Assembly: GCA_029863625.1 (NCBI GenBank)
Contig: JAOTUY010000001.1
Coordinates: 82,046-146,045, forward strand
From: Acidimicrobiia bacterium
GTDB taxonomy: Bacteria > Actinomycetota > Acidimicrobiia > Spongiisociales > UBA4744
DNA length: 64,000 bases
Direction: 5' to 3'
Made by a program: the position numbers and the translations under genes. Numbering within the stretch: the stretch's first letter is position 1; the number at the start of each line of letters is the position of its first letter. Below the pieces are notes generated by a model. That model was not told the DNA's origin and did not search any database. It saw nothing but the letters and a program-made list of their open reading frames with translations. Below, piece by piece: positions 22,833 through 60,084 of the stretch.

Positions 22833-23987
22833 CTACCCAGCCAGGTAGCTGATGATGCGGTCTTCCTCTGCCTCGCCATCGGCGATGAAGTCGATGACGA
22901 AGTCACGAGCTTCCTCATCGAGGTATTGGACCGGGGGGCTCTTCATGAAGTAGGCGGAAGGTCCTGGCAGCGGTCCACCCATGCCACGGTCCCTGGCGAT
23001 TTGCACCGTCCGGATGGCGTCGATCACCACTCCCGCCGAATTCGGCGAATCCCACACCTCGAGCTTCAACTCGAGATTGAGGGGGACGCCACCAAACGAT
23101 CTTCCTTCGAGCCGGATATAGGCCCATTTGCGGTCTGAGAGCCAGGCCACGAAGTCGGATGGCCCGATGTGAACATTGCCGTCCCCGAGATCGTAGGGGA
23201 TCTGGGAGGTAACGGCCTGCGTCTTGGAGATCTTCTTTGACTCAAGCCGGTCGCTTTCCAGCATGTTCTTGAAGTCCATGTTGCCGCCAACATTGAGCTG
23301 CATCGTCCGCTCCAGATCGACGCCCCGTTCCTCGAAAAGGCGGGCCAGTGCCCGATGGACGATGGTCGCTCCGACCTGCGACTTGATGTCATCGCCAATG
23401 ATGGGGATCCCTGCGGTACGAAACCTCTCGGCCCACGATCTGTTTGAGGCGATGAACACCGGAATGCAGTTGACGAACCCCACCCCCGCCTCCAACGCAG
23501 CTTCGGCGTAGAAGCGGGTCGCCTCTTCCGAGCCGACCGGCAGGTAGTTCACCAGCACGTCCGCCCGCGCCTCTCGCAGAGCTGCGACCACGTCAACCGG
23601 GTCCACCATCGATTCCTCAACAGAGTCGCGGTAGTAGGCGCCGAGCCCGTCGAGCGTCGGTCCGCGCAGCACCTCTGTTTCGAGATCTCCGACGTCGGCG
23701 AAGCGCACGGTGTTGTTCATGCCTGCCCACATCGCCTTGGAGAGATCCAGACCGACTTTGGTCGTGTCCACATCGAAGGCGGTCACGAACCGCAGATCGC
23801 CAATGTGGTAATCGCCCATCCGCACGTTCATGAGACCCGGGACCGAGTCGCCGGGCACCGCGGTCCGGTAGTAGTCGACCCCTTGGACGAGCGAGTTGGC
23901 GCAGTTGCCCACTCCGACGATGGCCACTCGAATCTCACTCAATGGTTTCGGGTCCTCTCGGGGCGTTATGACTGGCCGGCCGGTCAT
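22833..23987 (-). CDS. ino1: myo-Inositol-1-phosphate synthase
   Basis: Near-colinear with mycobacterial Ino1: [78 protein letters not shown]. Confidence 0.9.
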
Positions 23988-33341: not shown

Positions 33342-34712
33342 ATGACCGATCTCGACCGGATCTCCGCTCCCACCAGGAGCACATCCGGTCGGGGCCGTAT
33401 TCCCCCTCACAACATCGACGCCGAGGAATCGGTGCTGGGCGCCATCATGCTTTCGGCGGATGCCGCCAATCTGGTGATGGACAAGCTCGAAGCCGATGAC
33501 TTCTACGTTCCGGCGCATCAGGCTATTTTCGATTCGATTGTCCAGTTGTACAACGCCAACCAGCCGATCGATCCGCTGACCGTCTCGGACGCGCTGCACC
33601 GCAAAGGCGAGTTAGACCGAATCGGCGGCGCCGGATATCTCACCGACTTGATGGAGGGCGTGCCCACAGCCTCCAATATCGAGTATTACGCCGAGATTGT
33701 TGAGGAACATGGTCTACGGCGCCGCTTGATCAGCGCCGGTGGCCTGATCGGCGATCTGGCGGTCATGACCGATCTCGAAATCTCGGCAGTCCTCGACCGG
33801 GCCGAGCAAACGGTGTTCGGAGTCGGTGAGCGGAGGATCGGCGAAGGCCTGATCGCGATGAGCCCGCTGCTCCACAGCACCCTCGAAGTGATCGAAGAGA
33901 TGGAAGCCCGCGGCACTGAGTTGACCGGGCTGGCCACCGGTTTTCGGGACCTGGATCGCAAATTGGCAGGACTGCAGGCTGCCAACCTGGTAATCGTTGC
34001 GGCAAGGCCGTCGATGGGTAAGTCGGCCCTTGCCTCGAACATTGCCACCAACGTGGCCATGGACGGTGGGACCGTGGCCATGTTCAGCCTCGAGATGAGT
34101 CGCGAAGAGATCGTGCAGCGGCTTTTGTGTTCTGTGGGCAGGGTCGATTCGATGAAACTCCGTACCGGTCAGCTCGGCCCTCAGCTTTGGCAGAAGGTTG
34201 TGCACGCCGCTTCGCGCATGTACAAAGCGCCGATCTTCATCGACGATTCCGGGCAGCTCACGGTTACCGACATCCGGGCAAAATGTCGCCGGCTCAAGCG
34301 TCAACACGGGTTGGACCTCGTGATCATCGACTATCTCCAGCTGATGACCGGGTCGAACCGCGAGAATCGCCAGCAGGAGATTGCCGAGATAAGCCGGTCA
34401 CTCAAGAACCTCGCCCGGGAACTCGATATCCCGATTTTGGCGGTGTCGCAGTTGAATCGAGGCTTGGAAGCCCGAGAGGACAAGCGTCCCAGGCTGGGTG
34501 ACCTTCGAGAGAGCGGCGCCATTGAGCAGGACTCTGACGTCGTGATGTTCATCTATCGCCACGAGTACTACCACCCGGAAGCCCAGGACACGAAGGGTCT
34601 CGCCGAGGTGATTATCGCCAAACACCGGGCAGGATCCACCGGCCGGGTCGACATGACTTTCCTTCCTGAATTCACTCTTTTCGCCGACCTGGGTCGCGAC
34701 GTCTCCGTCTGA
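33342..34712 (+). CDS. dnaB: Replicative DNA helicase DnaB (no intein)
   Basis: PHNIDAEESVLGAIMLS, Walker A ARPSMGKSALA, SQLNRGLEAREDKRP. 456 aa. Confidence 0.9.
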   Translation: MTDLDRISAPTRSTSGRGRIPPHNIDAEESVLGAIMLSADAANLVMDKLEADDFYVPAHQAIFDSIVQLYNANQPIDPLTVSDALHRKGELDRIGGAGYLTDLMEGVPTASNIEYYAEIVEEHGLRRRLISAGGLIGDLAVMTDLEISAVLDRAEQTVFGVGERRIGEGLIAMSPLLHSTLEVIEEMEARGTELTGLATGFRDLDRKLAGLQAANLVIVAARPSMGKSALASNIATNVAMDGGTVAMFSLEMSREEIVQRLLCSVGRVDSMKLRTGQLGPQLWQKVVHAASRMYKAPIFIDDSGQLTVTDIRAKCRRLKRQHGLDLVIIDYLQLMTGSNRENRQQEIAEISRSLKNLARELDIPILAVSQLNRGLEAREDKRPRLGDLRESGAIEQDSDVVMFIYRHEYYHPEAQDTKGLAEVIIAKHRAGSTGRVDMTFLPEFTLFADLGRDVSV

Positions 34713-34735: not shown

Positions 34736-35080
34736 ATGAGTTCCTCGGTGGCGTGTTCGATTCCAGAGGAAAACGGGCTTCTCTTCCGGGTGGACGATCT
34801 CAACGTGGCCTTGGCCGCTTGTATCGTCGGGTTCGCCGATCAAGCCGTTCTGCCGGATTACCTATTTTGGGCGATGGCCGGGGATTGGTTGGCTAGGTTC
34901 AATCTCATGACTAACCAATCCCGGGTCCTGTGGATCGTCGGCATCATCGTGGCTCTGGTCGTACTCGGCCAGCTACTCGCGCTCCTCAAATGGGCGATCG
35001 GTTTCGTGATCCTGGTGGTCGTGATCGGTCTCGTGGTTCGTGCGATGGGATCAGATACCGACCGGGGACCTCATCCCTGA
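34736..35080 (+). CDS. Small hypothetical membrane protein
   Basis: 114 aa, 3 hydrophobic helices. Confidence 0.4.
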   Translation: MSSSVACSIPEENGLLFRVDDLNVALAACIVGFADQAVLPDYLFWAMAGDWLARFNLMTNQSRVLWIVGIIVALVVLGQLLALLKWAIGFVILVVVIGLVVRAMGSDTDRGPHP

Positions 35081-35290
35081 CGGGAGTTGCCGCGGCGCAG
35101 GCCCGAAGGGCCTGAGGGCGGTGCCCGTAGGAGCGCTCGCCGGCCGGGTAACCGCTCACCGCGTTGGCGGCGGCTCGGCGACGAGCGCTCCTCGTATTCC
35201 GCAGCCCTCGGCACCCGGCCGCCGAGTATGCAAGGCTTGGATAAGCCAGAGGATGGCGTGGCGTACCGGCGACATCGATAGGAGCAATGA

Positions 35291-36631
35291 GTGGCACAGC
35301 GCAATGTGATCATCATCGGAGCAGCCGGGCGAGACTTCCACAACTTCAACACCCGCTACCGCGATGACGATTCGTCGAAGGTCGTTGCCTTTACCGCCAC
35401 TCAGATTCCCGACATCGAGGGCCGCCGCTACCCACCGGAACTGGCCGGTCCCCTTTACCCCGACGGAATCCCCGTCTACCCCCAGGAAGACCTCACTCGC
35501 CTCATCGGAGAACTCAGTGTCGATGAGTGTGTGTTCTCGTACAGCGACGTGTCCTACCAGCATGTGATGGGTGTTGGTGCCATCGTCCAAGCGGCGGGAG
35601 CATCTTTCACGATGCCGGGACCCGCCGATACTCAACTTCCCAGCACAAAACCGGTTGTCTCAGTGTGCGCCGTCCGCACCGGGTCGGGAAAGAGCCAAAC
35701 CTCCCGGCGAGTGATCGAGATCCTGATGGCCCGGGGTCTCAAGGTGGTGGCCGTCCGTCACCCGATGCCGTATGGGAACCTCGTTGCCCAAACCGTGCAA
35801 CGGTTCGCCGAACTGGCCGATCTCGAGAAGCACGACTGCACCATCGAAGAGATGGAGGAGTACGAACCGCACATCGTGCGAGGCAACGTGATCTATTCAG
35901 GCGTTGACTATGAGGCAATCCTGCGGGCGGCCGAAAACGACCCAGACGGTTGTGATGTCGTCGTCTGGGACGGCGGCAACAACGACTTCTCTTTCTTCAA
36001 ACCCGATCTGCGGATCACCGTGGCCGACCCCCATCGGGCCGGCCATGAGCTCCGGTACTACCCAGGCGAAATCAACGTTCGGATGGCCGATGTGGTGGTG
36101 ATCAACAAGGTCGACAGTGCCGATCCCGAAGGGGTCAAGACGGTCCGGGAAAACACAATGGCGATCAACCCCCGAGCGGTCATCGTGGAGGCGGCGTCAA
36201 CTGTACGAATCGACGACCCCGACATCGTGCGAGGCAAGCGTGCACTCGTGATCGAAGACGGTCCCACCCTCACCCACGGTGGGATGAAGATCGGGGCCGG
36301 GGTGGTGGCCGCCAGGCGGGCAGGGGCAACCGAACTGGTCGATCCACGCCCCTACCTGGTCGGACGCCTGCGAGAGACCTTCGAGACTTACCCCGACATC
36401 GGCACGATCCTGCCGGCCATGGGCTACGGCGAAGAGCAACTGCGCGATCTCGAGGCGACCATCAACGCAACGGATTGCGATGTAGTAGTGATCGGCACCC
36501 CCATCGACCTCAATCGGATCGTCACCATCGACAAGCCGAACACCCGGGTCTTTTACGACCTGGAGGAGCTGACGAAACCCAACCTCACCGACCTGCTGGC
36601 GAGTTTCGTGGAGGAACACGGTCTGACGTAG
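35291..36631 (+). CDS. P-loop NTPase with an N-terminal Rossmann-like domain; resembles the cyclic 2,3-diphosphoglycerate synthetase (COG2403) family
   Basis: N-terminal VIIIGAAGRDFHNFN. Walker A CAVRTGSGKSQTS. Roughly 446 aa, the same size and architecture as archaeal cDPG synthetase. The family assignment is from memory of the motif, not a search. Confidence 0.5.
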   Translation: MAQRNVIIIGAAGRDFHNFNTRYRDDDSSKVVAFTATQIPDIEGRRYPPELAGPLYPDGIPVYPQEDLTRLIGELSVDECVFSYSDVSYQHVMGVGAIVQAAGASFTMPGPADTQLPSTKPVVSVCAVRTGSGKSQTSRRVIEILMARGLKVVAVRHPMPYGNLVAQTVQRFAELADLEKHDCTIEEMEEYEPHIVRGNVIYSGVDYEAILRAAENDPDGCDVVVWDGGNNDFSFFKPDLRITVADPHRAGHELRYYPGEINVRMADVVVINKVDSADPEGVKTVRENTMAINPRAVIVEAASTVRIDDPDIVRGKRALVIEDGPTLTHGGMKIGAGVVAARRAGATELVDPRPYLVGRLRETFETYPDIGTILPAMGYGEEQLRDLEATINATDCDVVVIGTPIDLNRIVTIDKPNTRVFYDLEELTKPNLTDLLASFVEEHGLT

Positions 36632-36717: not shown

Positions 36718-36992
36718 AGGGGGTCTCTCGTTCTCGTCCGGTCCTCTCGGGAAGAGTCGGAGGAAGGGGGAACTCCGTATTGCTCGGCGTGCATGAGACC
36801 GGGCGAGAACTTGTACTTCTCCTATCGGGTTCTGCGTCTCTTTTCTTGAGTCGAATTCTCAAGGGAACTTCCCGCTGGGCCGCAACGTCTCGCTGCCAGG
36901 AGTCGATCACTTCCGCGCCGATCCCCGGGTCCAGAAGCTCGGGGATCGTGCGCGCCAGATATCCTCGTTCCGTGCAGTCCCGTTCGAACGCT

Positions 36993-37841
36993 ATGGTCTC
37001 TCTACTTGTCCTCACTGCCGCGTGGGGGACGATCCCCCTGATCGTGCGGTCCGTGGACCTATCCACGCAACAACTGGTGGCTATGCGCTTGTTGCTGGGG
37101 GCGCTGCCCTTGCTGGCGGTTCTCCTGAGTCGCGGTGTACCGCGTTTGGGTGGTTCCCAATGGTTGAAAGTGATCGGTCTGGGGGGGCTGCTGGCCTTTC
37201 ACTGGGTTGCCTTTTTCCGGTCACTCAGTACGACCACTGTGGCGATTGCGCTGGTTTTGGTCTACCTTGCTCCGGTGGCTATGGCCACCCTGGCGCCGAT
37301 GGTCCTAGGAGAACCGCTCCGGACCCGAGCAGCTGGTGCGCTGGCGGTTGCCCTCGCCGGAGTAGTGCTGGTGGCCAGACCGGGTGAGGGGGCCACCACT
37401 GAAGGCGTGATCTTCGGCTTGCTGGCGGCGGCCTCATTCACCGGTCTGGTGCTGGCCGGCAAACCGATTGCCCAGCAAATCGGCCCCCTCCGGCTTGCAG
37501 CCCTGGAGACCTCGGTGGCGGCTGTGCTCACGATTCCCTGGGCTGTGACCGCCTTTCCGGAGGCGATTGACTCCTGGTGGCAGCTCGCCATTCTTGGCGT
37601 CTTGCTGACCGGGCTGGCAGGTTACGTGTACTGGAGGAGCGTCGCAGCGCTTCCGGTCGCGACGGTTGCGGTGCTCAGCTACATGGAGCCTGCCTCGGCA
37701 GTTGTGTGGGCTGCCTTTTTCCTGGGCGAAACCGGCGATCTGACCACCTGGTCGGGGGTCGTCCTGGTCCTGGCTGCCGGCGCGGCAGCCGGATTGGAGG
37801 GCCGTGAGGCTTTGTCGGCGGAGCAACCGATTTCCGGCTGA
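36993..37841 (+). CDS. EamA/DMT-superfamily transporter
   Basis: 10 TM in two repeated halves. MVSLLVLTAAWGTIPLIV. The track start at 36780 is an extension. Confidence 0.7.
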   Translation: MVSLLVLTAAWGTIPLIVRSVDLSTQQLVAMRLLLGALPLLAVLLSRGVPRLGGSQWLKVIGLGGLLAFHWVAFFRSLSTTTVAIALVLVYLAPVAMATLAPMVLGEPLRTRAAGALAVALAGVVLVARPGEGATTEGVIFGLLAAASFTGLVLAGKPIAQQIGPLRLAALETSVAAVLTIPWAVTAFPEAIDSWWQLAILGVLLTGLAGYVYWRSVAALPVATVAVLSYMEPASAVVWAAFFLGETGDLTTWSGVVLVLAAGAAAGLEGREALSAEQPISG

Positions 37842-52914: not shown

Positions 52915-52985
52915 AGCGGGTGAGGGGAATTGAACCCCCGTTCCAAGCTTGGGAAGCTCGTGTTCTACCACTGAACTACACCCGC
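52915..52985 (-). tRNA. tRNA-Gly (anticodon CCC)
   Basis: The reverse complement folds as a cloverleaf: acceptor GCGGGTG/CACCCGC, D-arm GTTC-AGTGGTA-GAAC, anticodon stem/loop CGAGC-TTCCCAA-GCTTG, T-arm GGGGG-TTCAATT-CCCCT. CCA is not encoded. Confidence 0.85.
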
Positions 52986-53469: not shown

Positions 53470-55614
53470 CTACGCGGTGCCGACTGCTCGCCTGCTCACG
53501 ACCACCGGTAGGTGGGTCGGGCCGGTCAGCCGGTCGGATTCGAGCATCGAGATCCGTTCCGGGTCGACTTGAAGCTCCATCTCGTGGAGCCGGGGCCTGA
53601 TCGCCGCCAGCGCTGCTTGGGCCTCCAACAACGCCAGGCGCGCCCCGGGGCACCGATGCGGCCCGGCACCGAACGCCAGGTTCGACACGAGATCTGCCAG
53701 GCGCGTGCTCTCGGCATCCGGAGTTTCGGCGCCGTTTGCTGCGGCGAGGTTCGCAGCAACCACGGTGCGCGCGGCGAGCGATCGCTCACCAATCGCCGTC
53801 TCCTGGGTCACCAGCCGGTACACCCGGGCGACAGGTGGCCGGGTCCATAACACCTGTCCAAGGAGCGCTTGGTCCGATAGGCGCGCCCTGGGCGGCACGC
53901 CGGCGGCGAACAACGCGACTAGGGCATTGCCGATCAGGTGCGTCGTCGTTTCGTTGCCGGCCACTAGGAGCAAGCGGGCCACGCTGACCGCCTCCTCTGC
54001 GGCCAGGGCCTGGAGACCGTGCAGGATGGAGCTGATGAGATCCGCTCCGGGCGCCCGCTGCAGCCGGTCGACCAGGGCGACCAGCGCTTCTTCGAGTTCC
54101 GCGAGGTCACTCTCCGAATCGATCGAGTCACCTCCCTGCCTAACCCCGGTGCCGGCCAACACCACGGCGTCGGACCATCGGCCAAGGTCTGCAAGAGGCA
54201 CGCCGTCCAATCCGAGGAGCCATCCCATCGTGGCCACTGGGAGAGGTTTGGCGAAGTCGCCGACGAGATCACCGGTCCCTCTGGTGAAGATCTGTCCAAC
54301 GAGACGGGCGGCGAGTGATCGAACTTCGGGCTCGAGCGCAGCGACCCGGCTGTCCGACAGGGCCTGCGTCAGCGCCCGGCGCGTGCGTGTGTGCGCCGGC
54401 GGGTCGGCTCCCAGCAGAACGGGATCCGCCGCGGCCATAATGGAAGAGGAGAACGACTCCGGGTCGCGCAGCACTGTGATCACGTTGTCGCGGCCGGTGA
54501 TCTCGACAGGACTCGCCGGCGCTTTGTCGGCGGGTCGCCGGGAGGTGGTTGCGGATCGGATTGGGGTCACCTCGAGCGGCGGTGCCGGATCCGACGGGGA
54601 GACTTCGAGCCTCGTTTGTATCGCCCTCAAGGAGCTGAGCACAGTGGCGGCCGTGTAGTTCCGGTTCTGATCGAAGATGATCGATCCGGCGCCCCTTCCG
54701 GACGCTACCCATCCGTCATGGTGTTGCGGATCGACGACGTTGGGCGGCGGGATTCGTAGCGACGCCGACGCCGCCCACGCTCCATCCGCGGCTTGGGTGG
54801 CGAGGAGCCAGCCGGCTGCGCGCTCCAGTCGGTCCAACACACTGTCGGGGCCCCAGCGGGCCATGGTCTCCGCGGCACAGGCCGTGGCGAAGGATGACCC
54901 GCTGGGGTGCCAACGCGTCGCAACGGCCCCGACCACATCGACGCGTGAGCACATGGCGAGGGCCGCTCGCTGGAGTCGCTCCAGGTTGTCCGGTGCTGCG
55001 GCGCGCCCCAGCATGCGGCCCGCCAGCATGGTGGGGTACTCATCGTCGGCCCACCAGTATCCGGTCCAGGACCCGTCGGCGTTTTGCACCGATCTGAGGT
55101 ATTCGACGGCGCGCTGATGACCCGCATACTCGGGGATATCGGCGGCAGCCGTCACGCACACGTGATCGCCGCACCACCCCGCGAACGAGATGGAGCCCGA
55201 AAGCTTCGTGAATGCCCCGATCCTCCCGGCGGATCGGAACGTGGCGACCGCCCCCGACGGACGAGCGTGCCGGGCTACCAAGTCCAGCGCCCGGCTCGCC
55301 CGTCGGCCGCCGAGGTTGCCCATCCGTTCCGCCAGCTGCAGCGCCCACAATGTGGAGTCCGCGTCCGTTGGCACCCTCCGGTTGTAACCCCAGCCACGCT
55401 CCCAGCGCCGGCGACGCCGCAGCAGCCGCCATGCATGGCGCGCCGCCTCACGAGCCCGTTGCTCGGGCTCACCCGCGATCGCGACGGCGACATAGGCCGT
55501 CACCCACTCGTCGCTCGCTCCGGCCAGGGTGTCGAAGTCGCGCCACCAGCCTCGGCGGTCCCGACCGGTCAGCAGGAACTCGGTTGCCCGGTCGCGACCA
55601 GCCTGGATCTCCAT
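53470..55614 (-). CDS. Fusion protein: N-terminal class-II terpene-cyclase-like (squalene-hopene-cyclase repeat) domain plus C-terminal cytochrome P450
   Basis: N-domain: FLLTGRDRRGWW, DEWVTAYVAVAIAG, VPTDADSTLWALQLA (DxDD to DADS), QNADGSWTGYWW, QAADGAWAAS (QW motifs). C-domain: I-helix LVAGNETTTHLIGNA, heme loop FGAGPHRCPGARLA. ATG at 55614. Track residues 1-162 are an Arg-rich artefact overlapping the next gene. Confidence 0.75.
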   Translation of the reverse strand: MEIQAGRDRATEFLLTGRDRRGWWRDFDTLAGASDEWVTAYVAVAIAGEPEQRAREAARHAWRLLRRRRRWERGWGYNRRVPTDADSTLWALQLAERMGNLGGRRASRALDLVARHARPSGAVATFRSAGRIGAFTKLSGSISFAGWCGDHVCVTAAADIPEYAGHQRAVEYLRSVQNADGSWTGYWWADDEYPTMLAGRMLGRAAAPDNLERLQRAALAMCSRVDVVGAVATRWHPSGSSFATACAAETMARWGPDSVLDRLERAAGWLLATQAADGAWAASASLRIPPPNVVDPQHHDGWVASGRGAGSIIFDQNRNYTAATVLSSLRAIQTRLEVSPSDPAPPLEVTPIRSATTSRRPADKAPASPVEITGRDNVITVLRDPESFSSSIMAAADPVLLGADPPAHTRTRRALTQALSDSRVAALEPEVRSLAARLVGQIFTRGTGDLVGDFAKPLPVATMGWLLGLDGVPLADLGRWSDAVVLAGTGVRQGGDSIDSESDLAELEEALVALVDRLQRAPGADLISSILHGLQALAAEEAVSVARLLLVAGNETTTHLIGNALVALFAAGVPPRARLSDQALLGQVLWTRPPVARVYRLVTQETAIGERSLAARTVVAANLAAANGAETPDAESTRLADLVSNLAFGAGPHRCPGARLALLEAQAALAAIRPRLHEMELQVDPERISMLESDRLTGPTHLPVVVSRRAVGTA

Positions 55615-55622
55615 CTGAGAGG

Positions 55623-56252
55623 TCAGCAGGATGCGGTGATGTACGTCGCGTTGGGGGCCAGCACTTGTGCGCCGGCGTTGGCAGTGGGGCCGCTGCTCCA
55701 GCTTCCGCCGCTGAGCACCTTCACCGACACCTGCCCGGTCGACGGATTCCACACGACGAACTCGCCGGCCCTCAGTCCGCCCCCGATGGCCGATGTTTCG
55801 CCGCAGAAGGCGTTCACCGTCGCTCCGCCGGGGTTGATCGTGCCTCGGCCGACGTAGAAGCGGTTCTCCAGCGCCCACGAGTCGAGCTCGCCGCCGCCGC
55901 ACGAGTGGACGATCTCGTGAAAGACCGTCACGTCCGTGTCCGCTTGCACATTGGGTGGTAACGCCAGCGCACACATGTTGATGCTGTCCCCGTCCCGCGG
56001 TGCGGTGCCGAAGATGCCCGCCCGGCAGCTGCCTCCGAGACAGTCCACGTTCACCGACGCAATCGTCTTGCCGGCGAGCCGGTTCGCCAGGGTGGCGCAC
56101 TCGCCGCCCAACGCAGCCACCTGGGCCCGAATCGTGTTTTGCATGAAGTTGAAAGCGGAGGTGATCGCGTTGCGGTCGTTGAGATTGCAGTTCGGTACCT
56201 CCGTACCGCCTCCGGACCAGCTGCCGCCCTCGGTGTGTGTTACGAACGGCAT
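55623..56252 (-). CDS. Cys-rich HExxH zinc-metallopeptidase-like protein
   Basis: VTVFHEIVHSCGGGE (HExxHxxGxxE). About 10 Cys, no signal peptide. ATG at 56252 lies 7 nt after the upstream stop, with GAGG. Confidence 0.55.
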   Translation of the reverse strand: MPFVTHTEGGSWSGGGTEVPNCNLNDRNAITSAFNFMQNTIRAQVAALGGECATLANRLAGKTIASVNVDCLGGSCRAGIFGTAPRDGDSINMCALALPPNVQADTDVTVFHEIVHSCGGGELDSWALENRFYVGRGTINPGGATVNAFCGETSAIGGGLRAGEFVVWNPSTGQVSVKVLSGGSWSSGPTANAGAQVLAPNATYITASC

Positions 56253-56259
56253 GGAAGCC

Positions 56260-56721
56260 TCAGGACTCGAACTGCCACAGCACAAGCACGCCGCGGCTCA
56301 GTGGAAGGGGTACCTTCGAACCCTCGCTCGCGGCGCGGTACGAGCCGACCTGGGCCCGGCGGGCGTACATCGCCGCATCGGCGGGCTCGAGTGCGATCTC
56401 CCATCGAACCACGCCACCATCCGGAAGCTCTTGCGCACTCTGCAGCTTGATGGGCTCCTCGAGGTTCTGACCCTCGAACGGCGACTCGCCCTCCATCTCG
56501 ATGGGCTCGCCGTCACGCTCGTAGAGCTGCAATTTCCACGCCGCCACCTTCTTCTCCTCCATGAAGTGCACCTCGATGGAGGCTTTGCGTCCGTTGGCAT
56601 CGACGAGCTGGCCGGACCAGACGCTACGTTCTTGGGCCACGCGCGCTCCTTTCGCTGAGCGGCTCGGCGATGCCGGGCGTAGCCGGGACACCGCAGCCGG
56701 GTGGTCGTAGGCCGAAAGCAT
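56260..56721 (-). CDS. Hypothetical 153-aa acidic protein
   Basis: ORF between the acyltransferase and the HExxH gene. No known motif. Confidence 0.45.
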   Translation of the reverse strand: MLSAYDHPAAVSRLRPASPSRSAKGARVAQERSVWSGQLVDANGRKASIEVHFMEEKKVAAWKLQLYERDGEPIEMEGESPFEGQNLEEPIKLQSAQELPDGGVVRWEIALEPADAAMYARRAQVGSYRAASEGSKVPLPLSRGVLVLWQFES

Positions 56722-56731
56722 ACACTCGGGC

Positions 56732-57691
56732 TCACGCCTTGTAGGCGATTCTTTCGATGGCCTCGAGCACCGAGGACGAGTCGTCGTGGGCGCTCATCGT
56801 CGGCAGGACTGCGGCCCCGCCGGCAGCTTCAGTCACTGCGGTGGACAAGATGGGGTGAGGGCCGACTTCGACGAAGGTTCGTATGCCGGCGCGCGCCATG
56901 GAGCGGACAGCGGATACAAAGAGTGCCGGTTCGGACATGACGCGCCACCAGTAGTCGATTGTCAGGCGAGACCCATCGATGGCAGCGCCCTTGAGCGAGG
57001 AGTAGAAGGGCGCCGGTGCCGAGCGGGGCCGGATCGACGAGGCGGCGGCACGGAACGGCTCGCGCAGCGGCTCCATCTCGGCGCAGTGGAAGGCATACCG
57101 CAGCGTCTGCCGGCGCGTCCCGAGGCCCCGGGCGGCCACCACTGCCAGCGCCGAGTCGACGGCGCCCTCTTCGCCGGTGATCACGGTTGCCGTCGGGCTG
57201 AGCTCGACGGCGATCCAGACGTCGTCTCGTCCGTCGATGGTTTCCCGTACCGCCTCGGCTGATGCCAGCACCAGGGCCATTTGTCCGGACCGTAGCGGGC
57301 GTCGGATGGCCTCCGCTTCGGCGCCGGCAACGGCGATGGCGTCCTCCAGGCTCAATGAGCCGATGGACCACGCCGCGGCGAGTTCCCCCATGCTGAGACC
57401 CACCACCGCGTCCGGCGCCACCCCGGCATCGGCTAGCATCGCCGCTAACCCGATTTGAACGGCCGTGAGCACGGGCTGCACCCGATCCGGCTCTGCGTCG
57501 GAACCTCCCAGCCGCGACACCTTCTCGAGAATCGACCAGCCGAACTGATGTCGGCAGGCGGCATCGCAATCGGCCATCGCTTTGGCGAAGGCGGCATTGT
57601 CTAGTAGCAGTCCGTCGGCCATCCCGGGCCACTCCCCGCCCTGGGAGGAGAACACGAAGGCCACGGCGCCGGTCGTGAATAGGTCGTTCAC
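56732..57691 (-). CDS. Stand-alone acyltransferase (malonyl-CoA:ACP transacylase / PKS-AT fold) with a GLSMG active site
   Basis: AFVFSSQGGEWPGM (compare FVFPGQGSQ), GLSMGELAAAW (GHSxG variant), AFHCAEM. GTG at 57691 overlaps the upstream stop as GTGA. 320 aa, which matches FabD length. Confidence 0.7.
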   Translation of the reverse strand: MNDLFTTGAVAFVFSSQGGEWPGMADGLLLDNAAFAKAMADCDAACRHQFGWSILEKVSRLGGSDAEPDRVQPVLTAVQIGLAAMLADAGVAPDAVVGLSMGELAAAWSIGSLSLEDAIAVAGAEAEAIRRPLRSGQMALVLASAEAVRETIDGRDDVWIAVELSPTATVITGEEGAVDSALAVVAARGLGTRRQTLRYAFHCAEMEPLREPFRAAASSIRPRSAPAPFYSSLKGAAIDGSRLTIDYWWRVMSEPALFVSAVRSMARAGIRTFVEVGPHPILSTAVTEAAGGAAVLPTMSAHDDSSSVLEAIERIAYKA

Positions 57692-58677
57692 GGCTGAATG
57701 TGGGATGCGCCGAACCACGAGTACACCACCGAGGGCAGGGCCGAGTGGAGCCAGCCCGGTACCTGCGCCCCGGCTGGGAGCCGATGCCGCCATTCCTCGA
57801 GGCTGTGCACTCCACGGGAGACGATGCGGGCTGCCACGGCGGCCGGCGGGCGGGACCGGAGCGCGATCTCCACCAGGTTGGGCTCGTTTGCCTGCTCGTC
57901 CGCCTCGATGTCCATCGCGTCGTCGATTGCGCCGATGAACGCGCCGACGCCGAACATCCAACGGAGGTGCCACAGGAAGGTCGCCCGATCGGGAGATTGC
58001 GCCGGGAGCCACGCGGGCAGTCCCAGGACCACGAAGGGGAGCGCCGCTTTACGACGGAGCAAACCCGGCACCGCCAGTACCCCCGGTCGCGTCAGCGCCA
58101 CCTCAGCGGCGTGCATGCGCACCACGGCGTCGTCAAGTAACCGCCGAACCGTCTGGGCGGCGTCGCCGTGGGGGAGATCGTCCACCTCCGAGAAGTACCG
58201 CCTGACGAGCAGCGCCACGGCTCGGCCCGGCGCGAGCAAGTCTCGGGACCGTCGCCGAGGAGCGCCAGCCCAGTGCCCTAACAGGTCGAAAACGTCTTCG
58301 GGGAGCAAGCCGTTCGCTGGGATCCCTGCGTCGAGAAACGCGTCGTAGACCGTGACGATGAGGTTGGCGAGCGCCCCGATGTCGGCGACCCATTGCTCGA
58401 GGTCTGGTGCCAGGCCCAGCGGTGCGATCAAGAAACGGGTGAGGAGCCAGCCGAAGCCCATGATGCGGACAGGGTCGTCCGGACCCAGCGCCGTGGGCAG
58501 GGTGGCCATCGCGTCGAGCCAGGTCCTCGACCCCGCCAGCGGATCCAGGTCCCTCCAGAGACGTGCCCCTTGGCGCGACACGTGCCCGCGCACGTCCTGG
58601 TAGACGTGCGCGGACGGGATCAACTCGCGTGTCATCAGCTCATCCCAGACGAGCCGGCGAACAGTCACCGCAGGCAA
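57688..58677 (-). CDS. All-alpha protein with Asp-rich motifs at class-I terpene-synthase-like spacing (function unknown)
   Basis: VYDAFLD (roughly residue 112) and IDDAMDIEADE (roughly residue 252), about 140 aa apart. 329 aa with no TM. Translationally coupled to the acyltransferase. Confidence 0.5.
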   Translation of the reverse strand: MPAVTVRRLVWDELMTRELIPSAHVYQDVRGHVSRQGARLWRDLDPLAGSRTWLDAMATLPTALGPDDPVRIMGFGWLLTRFLIAPLGLAPDLEQWVADIGALANLIVTVYDAFLDAGIPANGLLPEDVFDLLGHWAGAPRRRSRDLLAPGRAVALLVRRYFSEVDDLPHGDAAQTVRRLLDDAVVRMHAAEVALTRPGVLAVPGLLRRKAALPFVVLGLPAWLPAQSPDRATFLWHLRWMFGVGAFIGAIDDAMDIEADEQANEPNLVEIALRSRPPAAVAARIVSRGVHSLEEWRHRLPAGAQVPGWLHSALPSVVYSWFGASHIQP

Positions 58678-59015
58678 TGGGACACATCCGCAAAGAGGCC
58701 GAGAACGAGATCACGCTCTACAGCGCCGCTCAGTTTCGGCACCTGGGCTGGACCGACCATGCGTCACCCTACCCGCGGCGCCAAGGTGCCGACGTAGGTC
58801 GAGGGTACGGGTCGTCGGCAGAAGGCTCAATTGATTCGTCTGATACGTCCCGATCATAGCCGCCGCCTTCGCTGGTGCTGCCTCCGCTCCGAGCGGCAAC
58901 CGAAAGGGGCCGATGGGCTTGACCGGGATGTCGCCCATGCGTCGACGAGGTGAGCCGTGATGCCGGTGTCACGTGGAGTGGGTGTTGCTTCCGTGCGTGA
59001 CTCCGACTCCGGACA

Positions 59016-59231
59016 CTATGAGAAGACGCTGGCCCCTCCCCACACGGCCAAGATAACTCCGACGGCGCCCAGGAACCAGGCTCGACCCGGCCGGAATTCA
59101 CCTTCCACTCCCCGCGGGCGCTCGCCTCGCCGATTCTTGAAGATGGCCAAGCCGTTGCCTAGGACCATCGCCAGTCCGATGGCCAGCACCACCTCAGGGA
59201 ACAAGCTCTCCAACCCAAAGATGTCATCCAT
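59016..59231 (-). CDS. Small 2-TM membrane protein
   Basis: 71 aa, two hydrophobic helices. No clear Shine-Dalgarno. Confidence 0.35.
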   Translation of the reverse strand: MDDIFGLESLFPEVVLAIGLAMVLGNGLAIFKNRRGERPRGVEGEFRPGRAWFLGAVGVILAVWGGASVFS

Positions 59232-59277
59232 CGGCCGTCACGGTAGCGGGTATGGTTGCTCTCTCGAAAGGAGCTGC

Positions 59278-60084
59278 ATGCCGAGGCACTGCTACGTCCT
59301 TCGTGTCTTCACTCGGGGCGATGAGGGTGGCAACCATTTGGGGGTTGTCACCGACGCCACCAGCCTGACTACCGCATCGATGCAGGCCATCGCCGTCGAT
59401 CTGGGGTTCTCAGAGACCATCTTCCTGGAATGGAGAGAAGGAGAGATCCCGTATGTGCGGATCTTCACGCCGGGAGCCGAACTTCCGTTCGCCGGTCACC
59501 CGCTCGTCGGGATGGCATGGACACTGAAGACCCTCGGCCCGGGTGGTCCCGACACCCTGCGGTGTGAGGCCTTTGAAGTTGCCATCCGCCTCGACGGGGA
59601 ATTGACGGCGATCGAGGTTCCGCTGGGACAGACGGTTCGTCCCGTACCGGAAGCCGCTTCGCTCGCAGCCGCGGTCGGCCTGCCGGAACCGGTGTCGGCC
59701 CGGTGGGTGGACATGCCCTTGCCCTACCTTCTGATCGAAGTCGCCTCGGCGGCAGCCGTTTCGGCGGCTGAACCTGCCTCCGAAGCAGAATTCGCCAGGG
59801 CCGGAGCAGACATGGTCTATTTGTACGCCTTTGCCTCTCCCTCGGTGGTGCAGGCTCGTTTCTTTGCACCCGGTCACGGCGTGTTTGAGGATCCTGCGAC
59901 CGGAAGCGCCGCCGTTGCTCTGTCCGCAGCGCTGCGCGCCGAGGGACGTGCATCAGGCCGCCTCGAGATCCGCCAGGGGTCCGAGATAGGCCATCCATCT
60001 TCCATCAACTTGGAATGGCACGGTGCCCAAGCGAGCATCGGTGGGACGGTCCGAAAGGACGAGGTACGGTGGCTGGATATTTGA
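59278..60084 (+). CDS. PhzF-family (phenazine biosynthesis-like / DAP-epimerase fold) isomerase
   Basis: YVLRVFTRGDEGGNHLGVV N-terminus, roughly 268 aa, AAAGGAG Shine-Dalgarno. Confidence 0.7.
   Translation: MPRHCYVLRVFTRGDEGGNHLGVVTDATSLTTASMQAIAVDLGFSETIFLEWREGEIPYVRIFTPGAELPFAGHPLVGMAWTLKTLGPGGPDTLRCEAFEVAIRLDGELTAIEVPLGQTVRPVPEAASLAAAVGLPEPVSARWVDMPLPYLLIEVASAAAVSAAEPASEAEFARAGADMVYLYAFASPSVVQARFFAPGHGVFEDPATGSAAVALSAALRAEGRASGRLEIRQGSEIGHPSSINLEWHGAQASIGGTVRKDEVRWLDI

Follow-up and report, generated by a model that had tools for sequence, protein, structure and literature searches.

Which reaction is carried out by the 446-residue P-loop protein encoded downstream of dnaB at positions 35291-36631 (+) of a 64,000-nucleotide stretch of Acidimicrobiia DNA (assembly GCA_029863625.1, contig JAOTUY010000001.1, positions 82,046 to 146,045; the whole stretch is called the window below)? 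The NCBI product name of exactly this protein is 'cyclic 2,3-diphosphoglycerate synthase', and its close relatives carry the JGI label 'predicted GTPase'. An earlier note on the same DNA had placed the gene in the family of the archaeal cyclic 2,3-diphosphoglycerate (cDPG) synthetases (cDPGS) and had considered a pathway for a cDPG-like solute. The analysis presented here points, with a probability of about 0.8, to a bacterial member of the ArcE family, that is, of the arginine synthetases or ATP-forming arginine deiminases. Most likely this is an ordinary metabolic gene that has been mislabelled, and no sign of a new protective-solute pathway was seen.

Probable assignment to the ArcE family

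ArcE was described as protein TK2200 of Thermococcus kodakarensis, an arginine synthetase / ATP-forming arginine deiminase which catalyses the reaction Arg + ADP + Pi <-> Cit + NH3 + ATP (Michimori, Yokooji & Atomi, PNAS 2024, PMC11032458). TK2200 had earlier been a hypothetical protein, its homologues were annotated as putative GTPases and were often found near arcB or arcC, and the family was reported to be LpxK-like, to show weak similarity to cDPGS and to be widespread in bacteria including Actinomycetota (PMC11032458). All of these published descriptors (labels, spread, arcB/arcC neighbours and structural likeness) were reproduced for the family of the Acidimicrobiia protein. Its phyletic spread also matches the one in the ArcE paper, which covers numerous phyla of bacteria, Actinomycetota among them, and in addition Thermoproteota, Asgard archaea and some few eukaryotes. 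The earlier statement that the product of these genes is unknown in bacteria is out of date, the family having been characterised in 2024 (PMC11032458).

Relatives were collected from one genome per species with a profile built from a 9-sequence alignment, and at least 592 genomes were found to encode one. Neighbourhoods were counted in the best 80 of these genomes, whose proteins are 61-73% identical to the protein studied here; all ORFs (open reading frames) neighbouring the homologues were clustered and the partners were named by NCBIfam. These 80 include Bacteroidota, Bacillota (Sporosarcina ureae, Virgibacillus, Siminovitchia), Chloroflexota, Marinimicrobia, Desulfobacterota, Calditrichota, KSB1, Nitrospina, Bathyarchaeia and Heimdallarchaeota. 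A carbamate kinase gene was located next to or near the homologue in 14 of the 80 genomes and a carbamoyltransferase gene in 13, the recurrent partners being situated immediately downstream on the same strand. The partner of about 315 aa could be identified as carbamate kinase, arcC (TIGR00746 and NF009007, above the cutoffs), and the carbamoyltransferase as ornithine carbamoyltransferase, arcB (TIGR00658, 404-430 bits with the cutoff at 281); in Bacteroidales the carbamoyltransferase partner is pyrB, followed by pyrI. With X standing for the homologue, the arrangements include an arcB-arcC-X operon (L024), whose X is 71% identical to the Acidimicrobiia protein, as well as X-arcC-arcB (L075) and arcC-X (L045). 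Adjacency to arcB or arcC was met for homologues 62-71% identical, at these three loci and at others such as L005, L032, L062, L069 and L077, and adjacency to arcC spans Marinimicrobia, Chloroflexota, Desulfobacterota, Calditrichota, Zixibacteria, KSB1, Melioribacteraceae and Nitrospina.

At seven loci of Bacteroidales and their relatives, a divergent argS is followed by arcE-pyrB-pyrI. This arrangement can be understood because the ArcE pathway was shown in 2026 to supply carbamoyl phosphate for pyrimidine synthesis in T. kodakarensis (PMC13260591), and by analogy it suggests that arginine-derived carbamoyl phosphate may feed pyrimidine synthesis in these bacteria as well. At eight further loci, sucC-sucD (ADP-forming succinate-CoA ligase by NCBIfam) comes after arcE or arcE-arcC; the hosts are Fibrobacterota, Krumholzibacteriia, Calditrichota, Zixibacteria, KSB1 and Nitrospina, several of them FCB-group or related phyla. 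The arcE-arcC-sucCD order brings together three enzymes of substrate-level phosphorylation, which could reflect a functional link or mere shared synteny. A split carbamoyl-phosphate synthetase, or carbamate-forming ATPase, acting together with carbamate kinase was also considered and was dropped, since the ArcE reaction explains the same neighbourhoods.

Several observations weigh against the ArcE assignment. No Thermococcales label occurred among the cluster members looked up, and neither PMC11032458 nor PMC13260591 contains an assay of a bacterial ArcE. The raw neighbour counts exceed the number of independent observations because related Bacteroidales account for a good part of the 80 loci. 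Among the genes of the 64-kb window there is neither arcB nor arcC nor any further arginine gene, and in the nearest relatives the arcE-like gene is solitary or placed in an unrelated context. The NKxD motif, invariant in the bacterial proteins, is at odds with the ADP preference of TK2200, and therefore details of nucleotide use or function may differ. Confidence was held at 0.8 because of the missing TK2200 alignment and the lack of an arginine-pathway neighbour in this genome.

Coding sequence, conserved motifs and extent of the family

The ORF reported earlier, of 446 aa with VIIIGAAGRDFHNFN (residues 6-20) and the P-loop CAVRTGSGKSQTS (residues 126-138), was confirmed in the translation of 35291-36631 (+). 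The G+C content at the three codon positions of its frame is 0.67/0.42/0.75, a third-position bias typical of real genes in a window of 63% G+C, and homologues start at the same residue as the GTG start codon. The identical NCBI protein comes from an Acidimicrobiia metagenome-assembled genome (MAG), so that the previous guess at an actinobacterium was right. The AlphaFold2 model reached a mean local confidence (pLDDT) of 94.2 and a predicted template-modelling score (pTM) of 0.92. The features of the gene are as follows.

35280-35284 (+): Shine-Dalgarno-like AGGAG, 6 nt 5' of the GTG, read from the sequence
35291-36631 (+): arcE-like coding sequence, predicted arginine synthetase / NTP-forming (nucleoside triphosphate-forming) arginine deiminase, 446 aa, GTG start, stop included
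35291-35644 (+): N-terminal Rossmann-like domain, about residues 1-118, with the invariant loop G10-A-A-G13-R14-D15-F-H17
35318-35350 (+): G10-N20 stretch of the N-terminal loop
35669-35695 (+): Walker A / P-loop A127-V-R129-T130-G131-S-G133-K134-S135, family consensus RTGxGKS
35966-35986 (+): W226-D227-G-G-N-N-D232, Walker B / switch-II-like, where cDPGS has M/L-E-G-S-G-A-A
36104-36115 (+): N272-K273-V274-D275, canonical NKxD base-specificity motif, opposite T302-M-C-E305 of cDPGS
36254-36283 (+): E322-D323-G-P-T-L-T-H329-G330-G, conserved loop specific to the family, at the place of 'ATTAP' in cDPGS; it probably belongs to the active site

The family comprises 3771 clusters at 50% identity (E <= 1e-3). 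Its other members are found in Desulfovibrionaceae, Gaiella, Thermoproteota, Asgard archaea and the eukaryote Creolimax; a Thermoproteota 'GTPase' is about 46% identical to the Acidimicrobiia protein over the full length. The signature motifs are GAAGRDFHxFN, RTGxGKS, RHPMPYG, EEREEYEP, GVDY, WDGGNND, DPxRxG, YPGE, NKxD, EDGPTLTHGG and LPAMGY. Identity remains above 60% across phyla, with many invariant charged residues, and for a family as large and as strongly conserved as this an enzyme is therefore expected and not a molecular switch. In the ichthyosporean Creolimax fragrantissima the protein is longer at its N-terminus by about 25 residues. Copies of the bacterial type, with 63-67% identity to the Acidimicrobiia protein, were also seen in Bathyarchaeial and Heimdallarchaeial MAGs, which suggests that horizontal transfer is frequent.

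Comparison with cDPGS

The name given by NCBI is not without a basis in homology. Among solved structures cDPGS is nearest to the protein, and it also gives the best sequence match in the PDB (single sequence against PDB 9SXB, E = 2.9e-4 over 105 residues), and comparison of the family with cDPGS by hhalign gave a probability of 98.5%; homology in overall sequence and fold is present. The identity is only 13-20%, however, and the residues by which cDPGS recognises its substrate are not retained. In cDPGS, K145 and R146 of the P-loop hold 2,3-diphosphoglycerate together with E45/K46, which the partner subunit contributes from its N-terminal domain, K149, T150 and D208 serve phosphate and Mg, and E305, T353, E404 and K406 help to bind the nucleotide (PMC10690619). 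When the cDPGS P-loop G142-T-G-K145-R146-I-G-K149-T150 was aligned to the Acidimicrobiia protein, only the generic K149/T150 were kept, as K134/S135, while K145/R146 are replaced by T130/G131 (HMMER alignment). E305 and T353 correspond to D275 and D323, D208 has no confident counterpart, and E404/K406 fall opposite I373/P375 in a part where the alignment is weak. The comparison with Methanothermus fervidus cDPGS covered about residues 73-460, and E45/K46 lie outside this range.

The cDPGS motifs MGRGGPE, HAASDHWEDA (with D208), GCRRCGGG, FGPYRI, TMCEEPM, HLSNRP and TELKAAAVDV (with E404 and K406) have no counterpart in the protein, and the conserved motifs GTGKRxGKT, EGSGAAIPP, FRPKP, ATTAP and YCDN are likewise missing from the family alignment. 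No 2-phosphoglycerate kinase was found among the genes of the window, to which the search was limited, and the close homologues pair with arcC, arcB and pyrBI. Moreover, cDPG is known only from hyperthermophilic methanogens (PMC10690619), whereas the present family is common in mesophilic bacteria. A genuine cDPGS making cDPG or a similar cyclic pyrophosphate solute is accordingly extremely improbable. Of the earlier placement in the cDPGS family, the distant homology and the shared fold hold, while orthology and function do not; the proposed cDPG-like solute pathway was not borne out. The ino1 gene that had been cited as a sign of inositol-derived solutes is indeed in the window (22833-23987 (-), PF01658), at a distance of 11 kb and on the opposite strand, and was dropped as solute evidence because it is unlinked to the arcE-like gene. 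In Actinomycetota ino1 is a normal gene that serves phosphatidylinositol and mycothiol synthesis.

A second solved 'cDPGS', PDB 9SXB, has 436 aa and retains the P-loop GTGKRVGKT. Its match to the ArcE profile is better than that of M. fervidus cDPGS (E 7e-19 versus 7e-15), and a 103-aa fragment of it had no near relatives among 5.8 billion proteins. This protein may be engineered or may come from an unsampled organism.

The cDPGS name is not confined to this one protein. NCBI applies it to many bacterial members of the family, with no support from an NCBIfam model and with the substrate-binding residues absent. For the Acidimicrobiia protein it is probably a misannotation, because the family matches ArcE/TK2200, and across NCBI, ArcE homologues seem to have been misannotated systematically. 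Taken at face value, the name implies a thermoprotective solute in mesophilic bacteria. In papers on ammonia-oxidising archaea and Pyrococcus, genes annotated as cDPGS, known by annotation only, have reportedly been taken as markers of thermoadaptation.

GTPase-like features and nucleotide preference

The GTPase label of the close relatives corresponds to a different explanation, in which the protein would be a G3E-type GTPase (CobW/HypB/UreG-like) acting as metallochaperone or regulatory switch, for example in the service of carbamate kinase or the carbamoyltransferases. HypB and UreG are indeed the next structural neighbours, a canonical NKxD is conserved in the bacterial clade, and a marginal match to Pfam cobW was obtained (residues 236-299, 21.8 bits with the cutoff at 20.7). 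This match, however, spans only about 65 residues (profile positions 113-179 of 180), and a full-length G3E domain (PF02492) with a metal-binding Cys/His motif was not found; none of the NCBIfam models came near its cutoff. In addition, a large Rossmann-like domain is present at the N-terminus and an extension at the C-terminus, both in common with the enzyme cDPGS. No conserved Cys-rich or CxCC-type metal motif could be seen, position 126 being Cys in only 34 of 79 sequences, while the many invariant acidic and basic residues away from the nucleotide site suggest a substrate pocket. Since the characterised relative TK2200 is also an enzyme, a GTPase of the G3E type is considered very unlikely.

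More weight can be given to the question of whether the bacterial proteins share the specificity of TK2200. At the NKxD motif (residues 272-275), the bacterial clade has N and K in 79 of 79 sequences and D in 72 of 79; among divergent and archaeal members the motif is degenerate, with N in 15/29 and D in 9/29. The rate of TK2200 with GDP is only 8.4% of that with ADP (PMC11032458). These numbers could speak for a member of the ArcE family that keeps this type of chemistry and has another specificity, either linked to GDP/GTP or directed to another guanidino or ureido substrate, and the unlinked position of the gene relative to arcB/arcC in this Acidimicrobiia lineage and the co-occurrence of homologues with sucCD in several phyla would fit such an enzyme. 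On the other hand, it is precisely within the NKxD clade that the arcB-arcC operons were found (L024, L075, L045), which ties this clade to arginine and citrulline, and TK2200 is strictly specific for L-arginine. The base preference cannot be read reliably from the motif, because cDPGS has Glu at the same position and binds adenine, its E305 being in contact with adenosine (PMC10690619). A specificity unlike that of TK2200 therefore appears unlikely. The narrower idea that the bacterial NKxD clade might consist of GDP/GTP-linked arginine synthetases, i.e. GTP-forming arginine deiminases, is doubtful but worth keeping as a tentative suggestion from the motif; such a clade would be a nucleotide-specificity variant of the Thermococcus enzyme and might be connected with the recurrent arcE-arcC-sucCD arrangement.

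Gene context in the window

The location beside dnaB given in the earlier note was confirmed, the gene lying downstream of dnaB (33342-34712; Pfam DnaB match in a syntenic locus) with a 114-aa ORF (34736-35080) and a spacer of 210 nt in between. The upstream order is rpsF-ssb-rpsR-rplI-dnaB, small ORF, arcE-like gene, and downstream follow an EamA transporter, a protein of the metallo-beta-lactamase fold and a DinB-type polymerase. The order dnaB - small ORF - arcE - EamA - dinB is kept in an Acidimicrobiia relative with an 83%-identical protein (L083). Neither a riboswitch nor any further Rfam element was found flanking the gene, a convincing promoter and a + strand terminator-like site are likewise absent, and two - strand terminator-like matches near it are at chance level. 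In this Acidimicrobiia lineage the gene is a stand-alone unit beside dnaB, and the window therefore provides no clue on the direction of the reaction.

The 114-aa ORF (+) has a hydrophobic C-terminal half and no Pfam match; at the same position in relatives only a 52-aa ORF is found (L082, 9696-9854), and the true gene at 34736-35080 may be shorter. The EamA-family gene directly 3' of arcE (36780-37841 (+)) is also present in L083, while the corresponding ORF of L082 is without a Pfam match. Its listed TTG start is probably too far upstream, as the Pfam match starts at residue 73. This transporter could conceivably act on arginine, citrulline or ornithine.

The context differs in an Acidimicrobiia relative with 79% identity, where it consists of an omega-aminotransferase, alanine dehydrogenase and, 3' of arcE, an aldehyde:ferredoxin-oxidoreductase-like gene, which was discarded as a functional clue for being too unspecific. 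At this type of locus (L084, 8830-9963 (+); also L085 and L086), a 377-aa ORF without Pfam or NCBIfam match is located 37 nt 5' of arcE on the same strand. Elsewhere in the window, the region 53470-58700 has a G+C content of 0.67-0.69 against about 0.62 and contains an 876-aa ORF with weak P450 and squalene-hopene-cyclase matches and an acyltransferase-domain protein (PF00698), followed just past its end by a PhzF-like protein (58957-60084). This region may have been acquired or may belong to secondary metabolism. Rfam matched nothing in the window except a single tRNA gene (52915-52985 (-), 69.4 bits). No arcA, the gene of the classical arginine deiminase, was found in the 64 kb; ArcE and ArcA are expected to occur in a complementary pattern.

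Proposed reaction and significance

By analogy with TK2200, we infer that the protein interconverts arginine and citrulline; its direction in this organism is likewise a matter of inference. The reversible reaction would be L-arginine + NDP + Pi <-> L-citrulline + NH3 + NTP, with NDP for the nucleoside diphosphate. Together with ornithine carbamoyltransferase, and with carbamate kinase where present, it would convert arginine to ornithine with a gain of up to two ATP and would yield carbamoyl phosphate, whereas in reverse it would make arginine from citrulline and free ammonia. The fold is of the SIMIBI P-loop class, and the enzyme could be seen as a 'kinase-ligase' akin to dethiobiotin synthetase, cDPGS and the synthetase domain of CTP synthase, all three of which are among its structural matches; in each of them an oxyanion or carbonyl oxygen is phosphorylated before a nucleophile displaces the phosphate. 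In synthesis, citrulline would receive the gamma-phosphate of NTP on its ureido oxygen to form an O-phospho-isourea intermediate, from which ammonia would displace phosphate to give the guanidinium group. In catabolism, phosphate would attack the guanidinium carbon, ammonia would leave and the phospho-intermediate would phosphorylate NDP. These steps are our own suggestion, as the ArcE papers offer no mechanism. Candidate residues for binding of the amino acid and phosphate, chosen from their conservation, are R14/H17, R129, H157, E186-E190, D206, D232, D246/R249 and D323/H329.

With the reassignment to ArcE, the organisms concerned can probably convert arginine to citrulline with conservation of energy, or form arginine from citrulline and ammonia in one step, which is of relevance for nitrogen and amino-acid turnover in abundant environmental Acidimicrobiia. 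Specialists will hardly be surprised, since homologues from bacteria, actinobacteria included, were already reported in the ArcE paper; the protein adds one more uncharacterised member to a known family, and the main value lies in correcting a widespread database name. The points of scientific interest are the nucleotide preference of the NKxD clade and the physiological direction in bacteria.

Comparison with known systems

The membrane-associated lipid kinase LpxK (tetraacyldisaccharide 4'-kinase, Aquifex aeolicus, PDB 4EHX/4EHY) is 13% identical to the Acidimicrobiia protein, lacks the N-terminal Rossmann-like domain and is unrelated in context and substrate. The G3E GTPases HypB, UreG and CobW (PF02492) share the SIMIBI fold, the NKxD and an ExxG/DxxG-type Walker B; in contrast, they have about 200-350 aa, insert metals, carry Cys/His metal sites and are without the extra domains and motifs of the present family. 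With cDPGS (M. fervidus, PDB 8ORK/8ORU, and also 9SXB) the protein has in common the two-domain build, with an alpha/beta domain at the N-terminus and a SIMIBI-type P-loop domain after it, the P-loop GK[ST] and a [DE]-G-[GS] Walker B-like motif, and probably also the logic of the reaction, namely phosphoryl transfer to an oxyanion and then displacement of phosphate. The two differ in the base-specificity segment (T-M-C-E in cDPGS, N-K-V-D here), in the partner genes (2-phosphoglycerate kinase as against arcB/arcC) and in the hosts, which are hyperthermophilic methanogens for cDPGS and widespread bacteria for the present family. Compared with ArcE TK2200, the protein comes from a mesophilic-type Acidimicrobiia MAG, stands alone beside dnaB with no arcB/arcC in 64 kb, and has the canonical NKxD, whereas TK2200 prefers ADP.

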